A stretch of DNA of 64,000 nucleotides, from NCBI GenBank assembly GCA_965215505.1, contig OZ244065.1, forward strand, positions 5,024,001 through 5,088,000, given 5' to 3'. Under the pieces are notes generated by a model that ran no database searches, was not told the origin of the DNA, and saw nothing but the letters and a program-made list of their open reading frames with translations. Positions 5,092 to 30,263 of the stretch are shown here, piece after piece (the stretch's first letter is position 1; each line of letters begins with the position of its first letter). This stretch comes from Capsulimonadaceae bacterium (GTDB taxonomy: Bacteria; Armatimonadota; Armatimonadia; Armatimonadales; Capsulimonadaceae). A program made the translations under genes and the position numbers.

Positions 5092-5958
5092 TCAGCTTCC
5101 TGACCGTCGCCCAGCTAAAGCGGGTGAAGACCCTGGCGGAGACGCGGGCGCATCCTCCTGACGCTCGATCGTCATCGTCTGGATCACCCGCACGGTCGGG
5201 ATAACGTGCCCGAAGTCCGCTGCCCCGCGCGCGCCCCGCTCCGTCATCACCAGGGACAGCGTGACCGTCATCGTGCTGGTCTGTCGGCGCAGATTGCCCG
5301 CGCCCGCGTCAAAAATGATTTTATCCGCCCGCGCGCTCCGCGTCGTCTGGAGCAGAGTCCCGTCATGGTCCGGCGACCGGCTCTCCGCCACGACGGGCGG
5401 GAAGTCCTGCGTGATGACCGCCCATCCCCGATCCCCGTACCGCACTGCCGTCAGCGCGAGGTCCGTCTTGACCCCCTCCGCCCCCTGAAGCGCCGTACCC
5501 CGCCACGTCCCTCCCGGCCCCGCCGGTGCAAAAGGCAGCCGGAAGAACGCCCGCAGCAGTTCCCCCGTGGCAGGGTCCTCCGCTGGCGTCAGCACCTGCC
5601 CGAGCGGCGTCACCCGCACCGTCCGCGTCACCGGCGGCTGCGGAGCCGACTCGTCCTCAAACCCCGGCTCCGGCGCGACCGTGACGCGAACCGTCGCCGT
5701 CCCGTCCGACCCCACCGACAGGACCTCCTCGGTCAGCCGCTCCACGACCGGTGGCTTGTAGGCTGCGTCCGGGTCCGTCGTCTCCACCGCCCCGGCGGGG
5801 TCATCAAAGTACGGGTCCCGCTGGACCAGATACCGCAGCGTCCGCCCCGGCGTGAAGTGGTAGCGCAACTTGACCGGCGCGTCCGGGGGCTGCGCGCGGG
5901 CGATGGGGAAAGACACGAGGCAAAGCACGGCAAGGGCGAACACGGGGCGGAAGTTCAT
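5092..5958 (-). CDS. Secreted hypothetical protein
   Basis: Signal peptide MNFRPVFALAVLCLVSFPIARA followed by VKLRYHFTPG. CATAAT lies 6 nt before ATG 5958. Confidence 0.7.
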   Translation of the reverse strand: MNFRPVFALAVLCLVSFPIARAQPPDAPVKLRYHFTPGRTLRYLVQRDPYFDDPAGAVETTDPDAAYKPPVVERLTEEVLSVGSDGTATVRVTVAPEPGFEDESAPQPPVTRTVRVTPLGQVLTPAEDPATGELLRAFFRLPFAPAGPGGTWRGTALQGAEGVKTDLALTAVRYGDRGWAVITQDFPPVVAESRSPDHDGTLLQTTRSARADKIIFDAGAGNLRRQTSTMTVTLSLVMTERGARGAADFGHVIPTVRVIQTMTIERQEDAPASPPGSSPALAGRRSGS

Positions 5959-6067
5959 AAGGAGATTATGGCACAATATGGGGGGCGGCTAGAGCGCGGC
6001 CAGAAGTGCGGGGATGTCGGCGGGGGAACACTCTTGGGGTTCAGCGTCCCCAGCCGCATTCACCAGG

Positions 6068-6970
6068 TTATGGCTGATTTGGCAGCTTCATATAGCAACC
6101 CGGCCAATCTTTGCCTGCGTATTTCTTGAACGGGATGCTCTGGCCAGGAAGGTTCAAATCCTGCCTAGCCCGCATGAGCCACAACAAGACAGCCGAAGCG
6201 GCTTCCACCAACAGAATACCTTGTTGGAGGTACGAAAATGCCGGTTTCTGGTCGCTGCCTCGGGTCTTATTTTCTACATAACTCGTCTCATTCCAGAAGG
6301 AGATGAGTAGCGATTCTGCGGCTGCAAGTGCGTCCAAGGTGAATGTTTGACCACTCTGCTCGGGGGAGACGAAAACCCACCACAGAACAGGATTATTGCT
6401 CTTCAGACGATTATTCATGTGCTGGAAAAGGCGAACGTCAAACTCGTCCGTTTTCCCAAGGTAAAGCTGCTCGGCGGTTCGGAGAAAATAAAGCCCGCGA
6501 TGTGTCCCGAATGGTTTACTTGATGGGAATTGTGTACCAACAAAGACATGAAGAATGGGCAATGCGGGATCTCGAAGTGTGACAGTGAACTCGTGGTGGG
6601 TTGTTGGTGCGTTTGCCTGTGGTGGGGGAGCCAATATCGGTTTGTCTGAGAGTTGTCGCACTGATTTATGTGGCGGCAGATACAAAAGCCGCCATTCCTT
6701 AGACCATTGCGGTTGTAAAGGGCTTGGCGGCGTACCGCCCGGTGACAGCACAGGCGGCGACCGTCTGCGGAGAACTTTGATGAAATCATCTGCCGCACCG
6801 CCTTTGTTGTTCAGCGGCGCTAGGCCCAGTTCGTTGCGTGCCGCCTGCACCTGCTCCTTGGTAACATTATTAACCGTCAGTCTCTCTTTGGCGACGTGAA
6901 TCTCCCATGCCATCGTCCGAAGGAAAACGGCTTCTAAAGGGCTTTTGTAGGAGAGGGGCAACGCTGGCAT
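6068..6970 (-). CDS. GIY-YIG nuclease-domain protein
   Basis: GLYFL...LYLGKT...RLFQH matches the GIY-YIG core. Visibly lower GC than the flanks. Alternative start at 7018. Confidence 0.6.
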   Translation of the reverse strand: MPALPLSYKSPLEAVFLRTMAWEIHVAKERLTVNNVTKEQVQAARNELGLAPLNNKGGAADDFIKVLRRRSPPVLSPGGTPPSPLQPQWSKEWRLLYLPPHKSVRQLSDKPILAPPPQANAPTTHHEFTVTLRDPALPILHVFVGTQFPSSKPFGTHRGLYFLRTAEQLYLGKTDEFDVRLFQHMNNRLKSNNPVLWWVFVSPEQSGQTFTLDALAAAESLLISFWNETSYVENKTRGSDQKPAFSYLQQGILLVEAASAVLLWLMRARQDLNLPGQSIPFKKYAGKDWPGCYMKLPNQP

Positions 6971-7043
6971 TATGCTGCTTTCTTGAAATATACTGTGCCC
7001 ACTCAGTACCTTCGCCAACTATGGCATATTCGGGGCGGAAGCT

Positions 7044-7282
7044 TTATGCGCTCGGAACCAGCAGGACGTCAAGGTGGTCGTTCTGCTTTAGCTCGCCCTC
7101 GATATCCGTCAACACGCCGAAGTAGCTGTAAGTGATGGGTTGTGCGTCGTGGGGCGGACGGGCACATACCACCAGTCGCCGTCGGCACGGACGAGACGTT
7201 CTACGACCTCGATGGTCATTTCGGCGGACTGATGCGGTCCCAGATACTGGTTCACACGCTGAATGATGTCTTGCTTACTCAT
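7044..7282 (-). pseudogene. Small HEPN-partner gene with a 1-nt frameshift
   Basis: MSKQDIIQRVNQYL...DGDWWYVPVRP continues in another frame as DAQPITYSYFGVLTDIEGELKQNDHLDVLLVPSA*; the shift is near 7150. Confidence 0.55.
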
Positions 7283-7655
7283 CGTCAACCTCCAGTGTCA
7301 GTAGGACGGTGTTTACATCGCGCAGTGCGTTAATCGCAATGGTGCGGTCGAGATAGGTCGCGGGCACATAATCCGCGATGACACGCGCCTTCCGAAGTCG
7401 GCTGACGGCTTTCATCAGGATGAAGCGTGTCTCGCGCGACAACCCATCGAGATTACGAAGGATATAGGCCGGTAGATCGGCATGAGCCGGGTTGTCCCGA
7501 CCCTCCTTGTAAATAACCTTGCCTTCAAGCGCGTTGGAGAGAGCCGCATAAGCGGCATAGCAGGAACGGTTGATGCTGCTCCGCAGGCCCCCATCCGTGA
7601 GCAGGTTCTTTGCCGACCTGCGACACTCCAGACTTAGCTCCCGCCATGTTGCCAT
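7275..7655 (-). CDS. HEPN domain protein
   Basis: RSSINRSCYAAYAA, NPAH and LRKARVIADY pattern of small HEPN proteins; preceded by AGGAGG and its own TACAAT. Confidence 0.7.
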   Translation of the reverse strand: MATWRELSLECRRSAKNLLTDGGLRSSINRSCYAAYAALSNALEGKVIYKEGRDNPAHADLPAYILRNLDGLSRETRFILMKAVSRLRKARVIADYVPATYLDRTIAINALRDVNTVLLTLEVDDE

Positions 7656-7694
7656 TGTACGCTCCTCCTGATTGTACCTGCGCCCGCCCCCGAG

Positions 7695-10577
<2,883 letters not shown>

Positions 10578-19592: not shown

Positions 19593-20989
19593 TGACTCCA
19601 CTGGACGACCCAGGGGTGCTTCAGGGCCAGGCGCTGGGCCTGTTCGGGGGCGACCATGTGCAGGAAGGCGAGGTATCCGCCGGCGTAGGCGCGGGCGTCT
19701 TTGCCCATCTGCCGGGAGACTTCGGCGACGCCTAATGTCTCGCAGCGGTGCAGGACGGCGCGGAAGCGGCGCAGGTCGGGGCGCGAGACGTGGGGCGTCT
19801 CGTTGACGACGATGCCGGTCACGACCTGGCGGTGCTGGGGGCGCAATACGGAGGTTTTCTCCTCGTTCACCGTCAACCCCACATCCGCGATGATCCGGCG
19901 GGCCAGGGCGAGCAGGATGCCGACCGGGGCCGACGATTCGGCGTGCGAGAAGACCAGGTCGTCGGCGTAGCGGGAGTACCGGAAGCCAAGCGCCTCGGCG
20001 GCCCCGGCAAGGCGTGAGTCCATGCGGTGGCACAGGAGGTTCGTCAGGGCGGGCGACGTGCAGGCCCCTTGCGGCAGACTGCGCTCGCCAATCGCGACGA
20101 AATGCGGCTTGCCGTCGAGCAGGACGGCGGCGCGCGGGGCCTCGGTGGCGAGCAATGAGAAGAGAGTCGCGACGCCGCCGCTGTAGCCCATCTCGCGGAA
20201 CAGGCGGCGGACGCGCGGCAGGGTGATGGAGGGGAAGAAGTCTTTGAGGTCAATGCGGGCGACGACGGCCCGGCCCGTGTGCCGGGCGGCGTTGTCCACG
20301 ACGGACAGGCCGGGGCGGAAGGCGGCGGCGGCCTCATGCACCGGCAGCGGGGCGAGGATGTTTTCCAGCAGCCAGCTTTGGGCGGCGCGCAGGCGGCGCT
20401 TGGGGGAGGAGATGACGCGCGTCCCGCCCCGCTTCTTCGGGATGGCGAACCGGGAATAGTGGTCCAGGCTCGCCGCCCCCCGGTGGTAAGTCAGCCAGGC
20501 CAGCTCGCGCTCCTCGATGCCGATGGCCTGAGCGACATCGGTCGCGGAGGTGAGGAGCGGCAGGCCCAGGGCGGCAAGCTCCTCCGGCTCGCCCGCGTCG
20601 TAGACCAGGCTCTTGGAGACGCCTCCGCCCAGGAAGGGCAGGGTCTTATGCCGCCACTCGGCGTCGTCGGCCTTTCTCTGCGCCTCTTCCTTGAGGCGGG
20701 CCTCGCGGCGGGCGGTGCGTTCGGCCCGGACGCGCTCGATGCGCTTGCGGCGGACCTCCAGGAGCAGTCGGGGGATGTCGCCCGCTTCGGCGATCTGCGC
20801 CTCGACGGCGGCGAGGTCGGTCTGCGCCGACGCCATCTCGTCATAGAGCGCGCGGAGCTGCTTCTCGGCAGTCGCGGCCTGGGCGGCGACTTCGGGGTTC
20901 GGGGGCCAGAAGCCGAGCCGCGTCATCTCCTCGCGGATGAAAGCCTGCTTGCCGACCTGCTGGTAGCGTTTCTTCTGCTCCGCGTTCAC
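19580..20989 (-). CDS. Retron-type reverse transcriptase with N-terminal helical extension
   Basis: IPKKRGGTRVI, region X NAARH, IDLKDFFPSI, LPQGACTSP, YADD and region Y VTGIVVN. Confidence 0.93.
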   Translation of the reverse strand: MNAEQKKRYQQVGKQAFIREEMTRLGFWPPNPEVAAQAATAEKQLRALYDEMASAQTDLAAVEAQIAEAGDIPRLLLEVRRKRIERVRAERTARREARLKEEAQRKADDAEWRHKTLPFLGGGVSKSLVYDAGEPEELAALGLPLLTSATDVAQAIGIEERELAWLTYHRGAASLDHYSRFAIPKKRGGTRVISSPKRRLRAAQSWLLENILAPLPVHEAAAAFRPGLSVVDNAARHTGRAVVARIDLKDFFPSITLPRVRRLFREMGYSGGVATLFSLLATEAPRAAVLLDGKPHFVAIGERSLPQGACTSPALTNLLCHRMDSRLAGAAEALGFRYSRYADDLVFSHAESSAPVGILLALARRIIADVGLTVNEEKTSVLRPQHRQVVTGIVVNETPHVSRPDLRRFRAVLHRCETLGVAEVSRQMGKDARAYAGGYLAFLHMVAPEQAQRLALKHPWVVQWSQAAP

Positions 20990-22980
20990 TTGGCTTTGTC
21001 CTCCAGCATGGCCTGGAACTGGGTTTCGGTCAGGACCGAGACGCCCAGCTCGCGCGCCTTAGTCAGCTTGGAGCCGGCCTTGTCGCCCGCTACCAGGTGC
21101 GTGGTCGTCCGGGTGACGCTGCCCGAGGCTTTGCCGCCGCCCTGCATGACCAGGCTCTCGGCCTGCTCCCGCGTGAACAATGTCAAAGCGCCGGTGAAGA
21201 CGAAGGTCTGGCCCTTGAAGCGGTCCGGGCGGAGGGCCGCCCCACCGCCCCCGGCGGCGGCCTGGGTCGCGCCCGCCCCGACCTGCTGCTGCGAGGCCAG
21301 CACGGTGGCGGCCAGGATGTGGGCGCACGGCCCTTTGCGGAGCTTCTCGCGCCGGTGCCAGGCGCAGTCGCAGGTGACGAACAGGGCGCGGCCGTCGGCG
21401 TCCAGGTCCAGCACGACGTGGAACTTGCGTTCCCGCTTCTCCTCGCCGCCGCGCACCTGGGCGCGGTAGCGGGTGGCCGCCTCGCTCGCCGGGGGCAGGC
21501 CGAAGATCTCTTCCTCCTCCTCGCCCGGCTTCAGCCACTTGACCCCGCCGGTGGCAACGAGCCGCCGGGCCAGGAACAGGCGCGGGTCGGATTCTTCTTC
21601 GCTCTCCGCCGGGAACGGCAAAAGCTGCCGCCAGCGGTAGACTCCGTCGGCCAGGTCGTACATCGCCCGTCCCTCGCGGCACAGGCGCTGCAAGGCGGAT
21701 GTCGCCGCCTCGCGCGACAGGTCGGTGTACGACGCCAGCTCCTGCGGCGACAGCCGCAGGCGCGTCTCCAACGCCTGGGCGGCCTGGGCGATGTCCCCCT
21801 CGGAAACCTGACCCGTCGAGGCCAGCAGGTCGAAGCGGGCCGCCCGCGACCAGTCGTTCTTGGTCCAGCCGGACAGCCCTAGATCAAACCGATGCCCCTT
21901 CTGGAAGACCGTCCAGTAGGAGGGCATCCCCGTCCCCAGCAGCCGCGCCTGGACCTTGTCGGCAGTCGGCATCAGAGATTCGAGCGTGAGCAGCCGCCGC
22001 CGCCCCCAGATCCGCACGTCGCCCGTAAAGTCGCCTTCATAGACGTGGTTCGTTTCGGCGATTTCGATGTTCCACGGCTCGACGATGACTTTGGGCTTTT
22101 GGCCCGGCGCGAGAACGAAGCGCAATGAGCGCGGCCCCTGATCCTCGTGGCGGCGGCGCAGGACGGCCAGCATCTCGGCGACCGTGGCGGTGCTCAGGGT
22201 CAGGTCAATGCCGGCAAATGCCGCCGCCGACTGCACCTGCAAGAAGCCGCGCACCCAGGTCGGCGGCAGGTCTATCTTCTTTTCCATGTGCTCGCCCGCG
22301 CCGGTCGCCACCGTCACGCCCCCGCCGCCCACCTGCAAGTAGGCGGGGCGGTAGTCGCGGACGCGGGCGATCTCGTTGGCGAGCGCCTTGCTGTAGTCCA
22401 CGTTCGTCGTGCCGTAGACCGTCTCGCCCATCGTGTCCAGCTTAGACATCGGCACGGTGACGCGCCCGTAGCTGGACTCGTCAATGGAGAAGACTTCAAA
22501 GACGACGCAGTCGGGGTGGACGCTGACGACCGGGTCTAGCACCATCCAGGCATCCTTGTCGTTGTCCCAGAGCCACTTGAAGTAGACGGCGCGGGACTGA
22601 AAAAAGTCCGCGCTCGCAAGCTCTTTCTCCAGGGGCAGCGCTTCGGTGCGGAGCGCCTTGATGCGGGCCTTCAGGCCGTCGCGGCGGTCGTTCAATCCAG
22701 GCATCTGGCGCAGCCGCAGGCCCACCTCGGCCCCCAACTCTTCCAGATACCGCTGCTGCACCCACTCCTGGTAGGCGGTGTGGTCTTTCGGTTTGGCCCG
22801 GTGGTCGCCGGACACGACGGCGTACAAAGCCAGCATGACGCGGGCATAGGCGAGGCTGTCTTTGACCAGGGCGCTGAGGGCAACCGGTGGGCGGGACAGC
22901 TCTGCGGCCACGTCAAGCCGCATCCCGTCGGGGCTGAGGACGCCGCCGCTGGGGCGGGCATAGGACTGTGTGACTTCCAT
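20986..22980 (-). CDS. SWIM zinc-finger protein with C-terminal BRCT domain (retron-associated)
   Basis: CDC...GPCAH SWIM motif; FKGQTFVFTG...GGKASGSVTRTTTHLVAGDKAGSKLTKARELGV is a ligase-type BRCT. Overlaps the RT start by 4 nt. Confidence 0.85.
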   Translation of the reverse strand: MEVTQSYARPSGGVLSPDGMRLDVAAELSRPPVALSALVKDSLAYARVMLALYAVVSGDHRAKPKDHTAYQEWVQQRYLEELGAEVGLRLRQMPGLNDRRDGLKARIKALRTEALPLEKELASADFFQSRAVYFKWLWDNDKDAWMVLDPVVSVHPDCVVFEVFSIDESSYGRVTVPMSKLDTMGETVYGTTNVDYSKALANEIARVRDYRPAYLQVGGGGVTVATGAGEHMEKKIDLPPTWVRGFLQVQSAAAFAGIDLTLSTATVAEMLAVLRRRHEDQGPRSLRFVLAPGQKPKVIVEPWNIEIAETNHVYEGDFTGDVRIWGRRRLLTLESLMPTADKVQARLLGTGMPSYWTVFQKGHRFDLGLSGWTKNDWSRAARFDLLASTGQVSEGDIAQAAQALETRLRLSPQELASYTDLSREAATSALQRLCREGRAMYDLADGVYRWRQLLPFPAESEEESDPRLFLARRLVATGGVKWLKPGEEEEEIFGLPPASEAATRYRAQVRGGEEKRERKFHVVLDLDADGRALFVTCDCAWHRREKLRKGPCAHILAATVLASQQQVGAGATQAAAGGGGAALRPDRFKGQTFVFTGALTLFTREQAESLVMQGGGKASGSVTRTTTHLVAGDKAGSKLTKARELGVSVLTETQFQAMLEDKAK

Positions 22981-23074
22981 AGGTGATGCTCCCGAAAAAG
23001 AACCATGCCATGAATGGCACGGCTATTCGGCCTTCGGCCAAGAAGTACCGCTTCGCGGCACTGGAAAGGGGTTT

Positions 23075-26449: not shown

Positions 26450-26504
26450 GGGTCTCGCTCCAAGCCCTGCGGCGGGCCGTTAGGAAAGCGTCTTCGGAAA
26501 AGGC

Positions 26505-26752
26505 GTTGTCAGCCGGGGGTCGAATATCGCTACTAAACAAGAAGGGACCGGGCGCGGCCACTGTAGGCGCGACACCGGGGGTAGCCCCCATCTCGTTGGT
26601 GGGCCACGCCGACTCAGCGGCGGCGAGATGGGGGCTACCCCCGGTGTCGCGCTGAGTAGAGACGTGCGCCGGTGATGTGAAGGCCGCTTCACGGCAGCCA
26701 CGGCGAAACGCCGCAGACGGATTGCTAACGCCATCACCCCCAGACTGACAAC
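26505..26752 (-). ncRNA. Retron msr-msd RNA
   Basis: Terminal inverted arms 26505-26532 and 26726-26752 pair up to a TTAGC G (26725). Two short msr hairpins and a perfect 29-bp msd stem (26567-26595 with 26624-26652). Confidence 0.8.
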
Positions 26753-26759
26753 TGAGGAT

Positions 26760-26788
26760 AGTATATCACGTCAGGGCGGTGTTGGCAA
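26760..26788 (-). promoter_or_regulatory. Sigma70 promoter of the retron operon
   Basis: TTGCCA-17 nt-TATACT with extended -10 TG; the predicted start about 7 nt downstream coincides with the 5' arm of the ncRNA. Confidence 0.75.
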
Positions 26789-26840: not shown

Positions 26841-26874
26841 AAAAAGCGGGCCGGGGAACCCCGGCCCGCTTTTT
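26841..26874. terminator. Bidirectional intrinsic terminator
   Basis: AAAAAGCGGGCCGGGG-AA-CCCCGGCCCGCTTTTT downstream of ORF 26891..27190; separates it from the retron promoter. Confidence 0.8.
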
Positions 26875-27413: not shown

Positions 27414-29987
27414 CTAGAGCCGTGGGTCTATCGGCTCGCTCTCCAGGGCCAGCACGGCGAAGACGCACTCGTGGACGCGGCGCAGCGGCTCGCGGCGGAC
27501 GAACCGCTCCAAAGCCTCGATGCCCAGGGCGAATTCGCGGCCTGCGAGGGACCGCTTGCCGGACAGGCCGCGCGAGCGCAGGCGGGTCAGGTTATCGGGG
27601 GCGTCGTAGTCCGGGCCGTAGATGATGCGGAGGTACTCGCGGCCCCGGCACTTGACGGCGGGCTGGGACAGGCCGCGCGGCCCGCGCGTGATGAAGTCCC
27701 AGGGCTTGACCACCATGCCCTCGCCGCCTTTGCCAGTCAGCTCCTCCCACCACCGGATGCCCGCCGCGACGCTTTCCGGGTCGGTGACGTGGATCGTCTG
27801 GTGCGGCGTCGCCAGCAGCAGGCCGGTGGGGTCTGAGGCACAGAGCCGGGCCAAAGTCGCCATGTGCCAGCCGTGGTCCTTGTCGGCATGCACCGCGCCT
27901 TCCGAGGCCAGGAGGTGGAAGGGGGCCAGTTTCAAGTCGGCCAGGCTGTTCACGGGCCAGCAGTAGCGCCGGTAGGCGTCCACGAACAGGCCCGCCGTCG
28001 TTTCTCGCTTGGCGAACTTTTCCAGCAGTGGCTCCAAGCCGGGCGTGTGGGCCGACGCTCGGCGCAGGGCCGTGACCGCGTGGGGCAGGGCGGCCGTGGC
28101 CGCGTGGGGCAGGGCGGCCGTGGCCGCCGCGCCGACGGCGGCGTACTGGTCCCGGATGAGCGCCTGCGCCTTGGCCGACCAGGGCATCAGCTCGCAGTCC
28201 AGGCAGACCCAATCCGTGCCGAGTTCGTCCCACAGGCTGCTTTCAGTCAGGGCGTCCCGGATGAGGGCTAAGAACTGCGCTTCCAAATCTGCGTCGTCGA
28301 AGAACCGGCGGCCGGTGCGGGTCACGCAGACGCCGATACCTTCACCTTCAACGCCGAACCTTGCCCGCGCAACGCCCTCGTCCCGGCAGACAACGACCAC
28401 GGCGCGCGACCCCATGTGCTTCTCCTCGCAGATCACCGTCGGCAGGCCCTGGTTACGGTAGTAGGAAAACGCCTCGGCGGGGTGTTCCAGCAGGCCCGGC
28501 TCCGCCGTCGTCTCGGACGGGGACATGGTAGGCGGCAAATAGATCAGCCACTTGGGGTTTGCGGCGAACCGGCTCATCACTTCCAAAGCCGCGATCGCGT
28601 TCTCTTCCCGGACCGTGATGTTGCCGTGCAGGCGTGTCCCGATCAGCCGCTTGCCGGTGACGTCCTCTATGTCCAGGATGTCGTCGTGCTGCTGCTGTGC
28701 CGACAGGGCAGGGGCCGACTCCTCCGGCGGCAGGAAGGGGCGGGCCGGCTCCGTATAAGTCTGGCGGGCGGGGACCGAGATTAGCTCCCGCTCCGGCCAG
28801 CGCAGGGCGGTCAGTTTGCCGCCGAAGACGCAGCCGGTGTCAATGTTAATCGTGTGGTTCAGCCACTCCGGGGCGGGAATGGGCGTGTGTCCGTAGACGA
28901 CATCCGCCAAGCCCCGATACTCCGCCGCCCAGTTGTAGCGGATGGGCAGGCCGAACTCGTCTGTCTCTCCGGTCGTCTCGCCATACAGGGCGAACTCGCG
29001 GACCTTGCCCGACCCGCGCCCCATCATCTCCGCCTTCATGCCCGCGTGGGCAACCACGAGCCTGCCGTCGTCCAGCACATAATGGCTGACCAGGCTGTCC
29101 AAGAACGTCCTGACCTCATGGACAAACTCCGTCGGCTCGCCCTCTAGCTGCGCCAGTGTCTCGGCCAGGCCGTGCGTGATCTGGACATCCCGGCCGCGCA
29201 GCTTCCGCAGCAGCTTGACATCGTGGTTGCCCGGCACGCACAGGGCCGTGCCCGCCGACACCATGCCCATCACCAGCCGCAGCACGTCCGGCGTCTTCGG
29301 CCCCCGGTCGCCCAGGTCGCCCAAAAAGACCGCCTTGCGCCCATCCGGCGGCGTGACGGTGTGGCCGTCAACGGCGTAGCCGAGAGCGGTCAGCAGTGCG
29401 GTCAGCTCGTCAAAGCACCCATGCACGTCGCCGATGATGTCGAACGGGCCGTGTTCGCCCTTCTTGTTGTTGTACAGCGGCTCGCGCGTCACGGTCGCCT
29501 CGGCCACCTGTTCCGGGCTGGTCAGCGTGAAGACGTGCCGGAAGCCTTCGCGCTCCAATCCCCGCAAGGACTGGCGCAGGCTCTTGATGTGGTTGCGGAC
29601 GACGTGCGGCCCGAAGTCCCGGTCCGGGCGGTTGACGTTGCGGTCCTGACACACCCGCTCCGGCATGTCCAGCACGACCGCGACCGGCAGGCAGTGGTAC
29701 TCACGCGCCAGCGCGAGGAGCGGCTTGCGCGCCTCGGGCTGGACGTTCGTCGCATCCACGACGACCAGCCTCCCGGCGGCTAACCGCTTGGAGGCGATGA
29801 AGTGCAGCACGTCGAAGGCGTCTTTCGTCGCCGCCTGCTCGTTCTCATCGTCGGAGACAAGTCCCCGGCAGAAGTCCGAAGATAGCACTTCAGTCGGCAG
29901 GAAGTGCTGCCGGGCGAACGAGGACTTGCCGGAGCCGGACGCGCCGATAAGTACGACGAGGGAGAGTTCTGGGATGGTGATATTCAT
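27414..29987 (-). CDS. pnkp: Polynucleotide kinase-phosphatase-ligase (bacterial Pnkp)
   Basis: Kinase GASGSGKS, metallophosphoesterase GDVHG/GNHD/VYGH, ligase EEKHMGSR, EGMVVKP, KCRGREYLRIIYG; start at MNITIPELSL. Confidence 0.95.
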   Translation of the reverse strand: MNITIPELSLVVLIGASGSGKSSFARQHFLPTEVLSSDFCRGLVSDDENEQAATKDAFDVLHFIASKRLAAGRLVVVDATNVQPEARKPLLALAREYHCLPVAVVLDMPERVCQDRNVNRPDRDFGPHVVRNHIKSLRQSLRGLEREGFRHVFTLTSPEQVAEATVTREPLYNNKKGEHGPFDIIGDVHGCFDELTALLTALGYAVDGHTVTPPDGRKAVFLGDLGDRGPKTPDVLRLVMGMVSAGTALCVPGNHDVKLLRKLRGRDVQITHGLAETLAQLEGEPTEFVHEVRTFLDSLVSHYVLDDGRLVVAHAGMKAEMMGRGSGKVREFALYGETTGETDEFGLPIRYNWAAEYRGLADVVYGHTPIPAPEWLNHTINIDTGCVFGGKLTALRWPERELISVPARQTYTEPARPFLPPEESAPALSAQQQHDDILDIEDVTGKRLIGTRLHGNITVREENAIAALEVMSRFAANPKWLIYLPPTMSPSETTAEPGLLEHPAEAFSYYRNQGLPTVICEEKHMGSRAVVVVCRDEGVARARFGVEGEGIGVCVTRTGRRFFDDADLEAQFLALIRDALTESSLWDELGTDWVCLDCELMPWSAKAQALIRDQYAAVGAAATAALPHAATAALPHAVTALRRASAHTPGLEPLLEKFAKRETTAGLFVDAYRRYCWPVNSLADLKLAPFHLLASEGAVHADKDHGWHMATLARLCASDPTGLLLATPHQTIHVTDPESVAAGIRWWEELTGKGGEGMVVKPWDFITRGPRGLSQPAVKCRGREYLRIIYGPDYDAPDNLTRLRSRGLSGKRSLAGREFALGIEALERFVRREPLRRVHECVFAVLALESEPIDPRL

Positions 29988-30010
29988 GGATTGTAATGCT
30001 GTAATCGCCA

Positions 30011-30263
30011 CGGGTTGAAACCCGAGGCACCGAAGTCCCCTACGTCCGGGGGATGTGATGGCGGCTTGATTCCCCGGATTGAAATCCGGGTCTTCGGTAA
30101 AGCGATTGTCCGCCTGCGCGGACACAAGAGGCGGCCATGTAGGGGCGCGATTCATCGCGCCCTCTTTCCCGCTCGCGCCCTCGTTTCCTGTCGTATCTCC
30201 CGGTTTCTCTGTCCACGCAGGTGGACAACTGCACTTACGAAGACCCGGATTTCAATCCGGGGA
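30011..30263. repeat. Composite REP/REPIN-like inverted-repeat element
   Basis: Perfect 26-bp inverted repeat (30071-30096 with 30238-30263) extending imperfectly to about 54 bp; encloses the GTAG REP GTAGGGGCGCGATTCATCGCGCCC (30139-30162). Confidence 0.75.

Follow-up and report, generated by a model that had tools for sequence, protein, structure and literature searches.

A probable msr-msd RNA gene heading a type XIII retron operon in a Capsulimonadaceae bacterium

The minus-strand element at positions 26505 to 26752 of the 64,000-nt stretch of DNA analyzed (the window) very probably encodes the msr-msd RNA of a type XIII retron, the small RNA from which such a bacterial element makes single-stranded DNA. 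The element was followed by three co-oriented minus-strand genes, encoding a HEAT/ARM-WGR protein (ARM), a SWIM-BRCT protein, and a reverse transcriptase (RT). The terminal inverted repeats a1 and a2, the msr hairpins, the long msd stem-loop, and the context of a priming G that characterize retron RNAs were all found. With a retron RT and two type XIII accessory genes in the operon, the hallmarks of the RNA itself, and compensatory changes among its homologs, the msr-msd reading put forward in the original prediction was supported. Type XIII retrons and their RNA have already been catalogued (Mestre 2020); the element described here is a further, cleanly delimited case and leaves the general picture of retrons unchanged.

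Fold of the element and layout of the operon

The a1 arm (26752-26726), G26725 within GTTAGC, the a2 arm (26532-26505), and two small hairpins were all located where the original prediction had placed them, and an automatic, blind search for a1/a2 duplexes returned exactly 26505-26752. The closing duplex, claimed to be imperfect, consisted of 23 predicted pairs, two of them G-U, with one bulge and one internal loop, and the distance from the G to a2 was 193 nt. The perfect 29-bp stem that had been claimed was borne out by an inverted-repeat search of the window, in which the pair 26567-26595/26624-26652 was the fifth longest. Folding, which had been proposed as a check, gave the 261-nt RNA an energy of -151.1 kcal/mol, far below that of 200 shuffled sequences (-104.1 ± 5.4 kcal/mol; z -8.7), none of which folded as well. 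A conserved AGTAGC was present between the long hairpin and a2. In Rfam 15, no family matched the RNA at its gathering score, the best being mir-609 with 43 bits against the 98 required.

The priming G of retrons is described as lying usually in TAGC, at the inner end of a stem of 8 to 30 nt (Simon 2019). The claim of an unpaired branching G held in part: a1/a2 pairing stops right at G26725, yet this G was predicted to form a G-C pair in 22/22 aligned sequences, within a 3-bp helix at the base of the first msr hairpin domain; the third pair of this helix covaries between AU and CG. The G thus lies at the junction of two helices, outside any loop. The opposing G at 26533 is the probable first or near-first template base; for the published consensus, the legend of Fig. 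2B in Mestre 2020 speaks of "two opposing G residues."

The apical part of the long hairpin (26596-26623 in the window, and the same part in homologs) was conserved (CGCUGAG..GCCCACC), unlike the stem. At the foot of the stem on its 5' side (26653-26660), an ACUCAGC is complementary to the apical GCUGAGU. Both were invariant in the genus and the complementarity was broken in locus L064; the two could pair with each other in an alternative fold or be recognized by a protein.

Type XIII is defined by a SWIM zinc-finger protein (cluster 114, CxCx12CxH), a WGR-like/HEAT-ARM protein, and an RT clade (Mestre 2020). In the operon examined here, the SWIM_XIII match spanned residues 1-563 of the SWIM protein, whose motif reads C-D-C-x12-C-A-H, and a WGR-like/HEAT-ARM protein was encoded upstream of the SWIM gene. 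The best PADLOC model for the RT was RT_XIII (1.6e-145; next model, 4.8e-94), and its translation contained the motifs RYADD, NAARH, and VVTG, with an N-terminal extension of ~180 aa ahead of the RT domain, which starts at residue 183. This was the single RT_XIII gene in the whole genome. Retrons are "usually defined" by an RNA contiguous with the RT gene (Mestre 2020), whereas the RNA here, although on the same strand and in the same operon, lies 5.5 kb upstream with two genes between. The SWIM gene overlaps the RT gene, and the intergenic DNA ahead of the SWIM gene is a repeat, which leaves the 248-nt element as the sole candidate for a template RNA within the cassette.

The BRCT domain occupied residues 585-658 of the SWIM protein and was kept in Armatimonadota homologs, whose matches reach ~residue 660, while the matches in Verrucomicrobia, Pleionea, and Pedobacter loci stopped at 560-572. 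The RNA at the head of the operon, the BRCT domain on the SWIM protein, and the T-run past a2 found in 11/15 homologs are traits specific to this branch.

The promoter (Table 1) predicts that transcription starts at ~26752-26754, where a1 begins. A -10-like hexamer ending 6 to 7 nt ahead of a1 was seen in ~13/15 homologs when 45-nt upstream strings were inspected by eye. On sequence grounds, the T-run at 26498-26501 together with the a1/a2 stem may act as a partial terminator. The upstream neighbor (27414-30155) encodes a 913-aa polynucleotide kinase-phosphatase/ligase of the RNA-repair type (PNKP_ligase, 9.3e-180).

Matches in public reads were listed for 24 runs in the form of assembled contigs, from which no transcript ends can be read, and RNA libraries can contain DNA. 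Contigs of 151 to 206 nt from four soil RNA libraries in four studies fell within 26528-26736, and none extended beyond that span. Three soil contigs ran from the msr side into the 3' side of the hairpin, with a diverged stem of equal length between them, and one 134-nt insert (26555-26688, three differences) was bounded by adapters.

Table 1. Positions in the window of the putative retron RNA gene, its parts, and neighboring features
Feature	Position	Strand	Evidence or remarks
Terminator-like hairpin and T-run closing the upstream gene	26841..26869	minus	Sequence; terminator scan, stem 26861-26848 with tail
Sigma-70-type promoter	26760..26788	minus	TTGCCA-17-TATACT, TG ahead of the -10; 1 site versus 0.1 expected
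msr-msd non-coding RNA gene (very probable)	26505..26752	minus	248 nt from a1 start to a2 end; fold, homologs, covariation
a1, 5' arm of closing stem	26726..26752	minus	27 nt; helix 1, both-side changes in 8/14 pairs
Predicted priming (branching) G in GTTAGC	26725	minus	End of a1/a2 and TAGC conservation; analogy with validated retrons (Simon 2019)
msr domain 1	26694..26725	minus	Hairpin CGGCG-UUU-CGCCG, stem extended; closing 3-bp helix contains the G; helices 2 and 3
msr hairpin 2, GUGAAG-CGGC-CUUCAC	26677..26692	minus	Helix 4, GC<->AU in 5/22
Predicted msd (DNA-copied part)	26533..26676	minus	DNA would be the plus strand from ~26533; 3' end uncertain, ~26668-26677
Long msd hairpin	26567..26652	minus	Perfect 29-bp stem, 26624-26652 with 26567-26595; conserved apical part 26596-26623
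Conserved G opposing the priming G, directly 5' of a2	26533	minus	G before TAGC/TAAC in 22/22
a2, 3' arm of closing stem	26505..26532	minus	28 nt, opens with TAGC
T-run 3 nt past a2	26498..26501	minus	At least 4 T within 22 nt in 11/15 homologs
Accessory gene, 1124 aa	23075..26449	minus	LVIVD repeat (Pfam, 2.4e-08); HEAT-ARM_XIII 6.1e-25 and WGR_XIII 5.8e-23 (PADLOC)
REP/MITE-like three-hairpin insert, not part of the retron	22981..23074	minus	z -4.1; 59 genome matches; between accessory and SWIM genes
Type XIII SWIM zinc-finger protein, 664 aa, with C-terminal BRCT	20986..22980	minus	CxCx12CxH; SWIM_XIII 5.7e-169; Pfam SWIM, BRCT 9.6e-13
Retron reverse transcriptase, 469 aa	19580..20989	minus	RT_XIII 1.6e-145; RVT_1 at 183-392, 1e-23

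Relatives carrying the RNA

A full-length SWIM_XIII homolog was found in 23/40 related genomes, comprising 10/23 in the genus, 0/1 in the sister genus, and 13/16 in the order's second family. Matching public contigs were assigned to Armatimonadota (Capsulimonadaceae, Armatimonadaceae, and Armatimonas) and to one Verrucomicrobia MAG, with Pleionea and Pedobacter farther away; no myxobacterial locus was among the public contigs matched by the scan. By blastn, the RNA was detected upstream of the ARM gene in 15/20 fetched regions, including one cut by the contig start. Four of the five regions without it end short of the expected place, and the fifth is that of genome G035. By nhmmer, the RNA was detected in 21/35 public loci, including one cut by the contig end and a Verrucomicrobia MAG. 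The 14 public loci without an nhmmer match were made up of nine with too little upstream DNA, three distant systems, L087, which is a BRCT-only match, and L085. It had been stated beforehand that a lack of the fold at homologous loci would count against the prediction. Instead, the RNA was at the same place in 14/20 and 20/35 loci, with one additional cut locus in each set.

In one fold each, judged by eye, the distant systems L083 and L086 showed a structured element of their own adjoining the RT, and no retron-like element was seen in the SWIM-RT stretch of L084. In L085 (9150-10174, a Capsulimonadales contig that ends inside the SWIM gene), the SWIM gene directly follows an unrelated gene and a terminator, and neither an ARM gene nor the ncRNA was found upstream of it. 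Genome G036 yielded no homolog of the RNA. The PNKP-type gene upstream of the element did not neighbor any of the 55 homologous loci searched; the RNA therefore belongs to the cassette and travels with it.

Two arrangements departed from the usual one. In the MAG G035, the ncRNA and a full ARM gene (L099, ~5683-9513) were located on a 53.7-kb contig, C90, with no SWIM or RT gene within 7.5 kb downstream. The only SWIM-RT pair of this MAG was on a 35.5-kb contig, C167 (L044/L097), behind an unrelated 1268-aa frame and a MITE-like element. This split may be a binning artifact or the result of a strain mix. The MITE-like element (L097, 1124-1443; z -11.7), which lies between the unrelated gene and the SWIM gene, has terminal inverted repeats of ~60 nt around ~200 nt; it was considered as a retron RNA and rejected, as it looks like a MITE. 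In an Armatimonas MAG (L080), two complete ncRNA genes were found in tandem (6139-6379 and 6485-6716) upstream of a single ARM-SWIM-RT operon; the two differ in their 28-bp Watson-Crick stems, and each has a separate a1/a2 pair. The SWIM gene of this operon was recovered as two overlapping tblastn pieces and may contain a frameshift.

Compensatory changes and the composition of the long stem

Homologs were aligned with MAFFT and analyzed with RNAalifold. The more distant sequences were misaligned by MAFFT in their 5' arm; for this reason, pairing of a1 with a2 was assessed from duplex energies, and a separate alignment was made of the inner region. Among eight members of the genus, RNAalifold gave 86 pairs with 95.9% of cells paired, compared with 79.8% after shuffling and 36 to 49% in slid controls, and 35 pairs were changed on both sides. 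Helix 1 (a1/a2) in this set had 92.9% of cells paired and both-side changes in 8/14 pairs. In the larger set of 22 sequences, covering the stretch that begins with the G and runs up to a2, 96.3% of cells were paired versus 73.8% after shuffling, with 312 double-change cells versus 87. None of 500 shuffles reached any of five measures in the first set; in the second, none reached four of the five and one reached the fifth (further pair types), although these counts are not probabilities, because the sequences are kin. The slid controls, which preserve relatedness, were equally clear. Covariation in the 22 sequences extended to both msr hairpins and the lower stem, and msr domain 1 (helices 2 and 3) showed compensatory changes of GC to UA or AU along with numerous G-U variants. 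Covariation, which had been named as a check, was in favor of the prediction, all helices being kept through compensatory changes in homologs.

The a1 and a2 arms varied in sequence and length among relatives. Nevertheless, true partners formed duplexes with a mean of -38.0 kcal/mol, compared with -20.5 ± 7.0 kcal/mol for swapped ones, and only close kin equaled the true partner. In 14/15 sequences, the duplex ended 0 nt before the G of TAGC and started exactly at the TAGC or TAAC that opens a2. The TAGC itself was kept in 22/22 aligned sequences.

The long hairpin presented a different picture, in that its stem differed almost wholly among species of one genus while its flanks were nearly invariant. 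In helix 7 of the eight genus members, both partners had changed in 26/28 pairs, and no pair had a change in a single partner. When the first 25 positions of the msd stem were compared across 22 distinct hairpins (550 pairs), 546 were Watson-Crick, one was G-U, three were A-C, and none was of any other kind. In contrast, 83 of 644 predicted a1/a2 pairs were G-U, in predictions that over-extend at the outer end and among sequences whose kinship makes the Fisher p-value too strong, and the msr hairpins (helices 3 and 4) were likewise rich in G-U variants. The tolerance of G-U ended between 26677 and 26652. A helix that pairs both as RNA and as its DNA complement is expected to lack G-U pairs, because the complement of such a pair would be C-A; the near-absence of G-U from the msd stem therefore fits reverse transcription of that part. 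A stem made up only of Watson-Crick pairs could also stem from upkeep of the palindrome at the DNA level by template-switch correction, so that the evidence is supportive rather than exclusive. The contrast in G-U content within one RNA may offer a cheap computational marker of the DNA-copied part of retron RNAs.

Short words containing GTA were strongly over-represented in the otherwise variable stems. Of 22 arms, 12 contained GTAC (1.7 expected), 15 GGTA/TACC (2.9 expected), 14 GTAG/CTAC (2.9 expected), and 11 TAGT/ACTA (1.5 expected). Inner palindromes gave a mean z of -1.03 per stem arm (19/22 negative and 9/22 below -1), which is suggestive of a tendency for each arm to hold an inner palindrome. 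The long and freely variable stem could interest engineers who use retrons as DNA donors.

These data bear on whether the element is reverse transcribed at all. It could instead be a cis-acting leader of the ARM-SWIM-RT operon, such as an attenuator or a protein-binding 5' UTR, that is never copied into DNA. The location of the RNA between the promoter and the first gene, the T-run past the closing stem in 11/15 homologs, and the retention of the RNA with the ARM gene rather than the RT in the split G035 operon would all suit such a leader. A leader would not be expected to have the full layout of a retron RNA, with its G in TAGC where a1/a2 ends, or a long stem that avoids G-U, unlike the other helices in the same RNA. 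Furthermore, the elements in the distant type XIII loci L083 and L086, which are comparably structured in the single folds judged by eye, lie directly upstream of the RT, and with a mere leader at the head of the operon, the RT would be left without a template RNA anywhere in the genome. A leader function without reverse transcription is therefore considered very unlikely.

The strict Watson-Crick pairing of the perfect stem also raises the question of a DNA-level palindrome, which could be a REP/MITE or be recognized by the transposase-derived SWIM protein, and in which the RNA fold would be incidental; REP-like families are indeed present in the genome, and one of them has a member in this operon. 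The possibility that the hairpin is a multicopy genomic repeat had been named from the outset as a potential objection to the prediction, and it was not borne out. The 256-nt stretch matched itself alone in the 6.18-Mb genome, the second match being the hairpin against its own complement. As a positive control, the 94-nt spacer at 22981-23074, 3.4 kb away, returned 59 genome matches in the identical search, showing that the method does detect real repeats, and the ncRNA was accordingly rejected as a REP/MITE repeat. This spacer element, a member of a dispersed family, represents an insertion inside the retron operon, since the two genes flanking it abut in relatives. Such palindromes resemble the RNA gene in being GC-rich intergenic hairpins, but they lack its promoter, its covarying multi-helix architecture, and its link to an RT. 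In addition, the non-palindromic msr hairpins alongside and the a1/a2 stem covary through G-U intermediates, which is indicative of selection at the RNA level, and the position and orientation of the element relative to the promoter were fixed in homologs. A DNA-level origin of the fold is thus highly improbable. Finally, although an 85-aa frame (26480-26737, minus) is present in the ORF list, coding has a negligible probability given that length differences among homologs are not divisible by three (190 to 214 nt for the inner region), that the stem arms change in a complementary fashion unlike coding sequence, and that GC-rich DNA yields many such frames (76 ORFs in 12 kb).

Proposed mechanism and relation to known retrons

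Taking the element as a retron RNA, its processing can be proposed by analogy with validated retrons. The transcript would start at ~26753 and a1 would pair with a2, after which the RT, encoded 5.5 kb downstream, would bind the msr hairpins. The 2'-OH of G26725 would prime synthesis, and the RNA would be copied from ~G26533 back through the long hairpin. Synthesis would stop at ~26668-26677, and RNase H would remove the template, leaving a branched RNA-DNA molecule whose DNA, ~135 to 145 nt long, would carry the long hairpin on a lower stem. In retrons, the RT is described as stopping at a fixed place with 5 to 10 RNA bases remaining hybridized to the DNA, and the 241-nt transcript of Mx162 gives a 162-nt DNA with an 8-base overlap with the RNA (Simon 2019). 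An msr of Mx162-like length after the G would leave a DNA of ~135 to 145 nt, corresponding to the plus strand from 26533 to ~26668-26677. The DNA start near 26533 and end near 26670-26680 put forward in the original prediction fit both the wobble boundary and the proportions of Mx162, and the wobble boundary likewise fits a 3' end near 26668-26677. As DNA, the segment 26533-26676 folded at -61.2 kcal/mol (z -10.3).

More speculatively, the msDNA and RT may restrain the WGR-HEAT/ARM and SWIM-BRCT proteins, with release once the msDNA has been altered by a phage factor, as in other retron types. One further reading, which is regarded as rather unlikely, is that the retron RNA is an autonomous, exchangeable gene in this Armatimonadota branch rather than an appendage of the RT; it has its own promoter, a T-run past the closing stem, a separate contig in G035, and tandem copies in L080. 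The msd stem would then be a fast-diversifying bait selected on both strands, and the recurrent GTAC/GTAG-type core could be a contact site for a phage methylase or nuclease that triggers the WGR and BRCT effectors, which would sense DNA ends.

The msr-msd layout is shared with Retron-Eco1 (Ec86), of type II-A3, including a1/a2, a TAGC priming G, msr hairpins, an msd stem-loop, and a YADD RT. Retron-Eco1 differs in its RT clade and effector, in having the RNA directly upstream of the RT, and in its much shorter DNA, which measures 86 nt in Ec86. The RNA of Mx162 likewise lies directly upstream of its RT, whereas the RNA described here stands at the head of the operon and is separated from the RT by 5.5 kb and two genes. 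In general, the msr contains one to three hairpins and the msd a long stem-loop. The myxobacterial type XIII retrons include Retron-Mxa1 (Mx162), Mxa2 (Mx65), Sau1 (Sa163), and Nex2 (Ne144), and consensus structures have been published for the type XIII RNA, with four RNA sub-families (Mestre 2020). The operon studied here shares with them the RT clade with an N-terminal extension, as described for the myxococcal type XIII RTs, the SWIM CxCx12CxH protein, and the WGR/HEAT-ARM protein. Its RNA likewise has two small msr hairpins, a long msd hairpin, and a G in an AGC context at the inner end of a1/a2, and it is similar in size to that of Mx162 (248 versus 241 nt; Simon 2019). It differs in its SWIM protein with a BRCT domain and in its Armatimonadota host, and it is known from sequence alone.

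The SPIRE survey is described as searching 10 kb on either side of the RT for the RNA, and a 2026 survey as using 21 covariance models derived from the structures in Mestre 2020. Armatimonadota were mentioned in neither of the main texts searched, those of Mestre 2020 and the 2026 survey (0 occurrences in the latter), and a retron census preprint contained 0 mentions of XIII or Mx162. A literature search whose scope left out subscription journals and supplements returned no experimental study of type XIII function. The present analysis supplies a precise predicted map, comprising promoter, priming G, DNA start, and likely stop zone, for a type whose mechanism is uncharacterized in the papers searched, and does so in a host phylum in which few defense systems have been studied.

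The priming G is in a TAGC context here, compared with CAGC or GAGC in myxococcal retrons (Simon 2019). In the Verrucomicrobia homolog L081, inspection of the sequence by eye found TTCAGC at the aligned place of the priming G.
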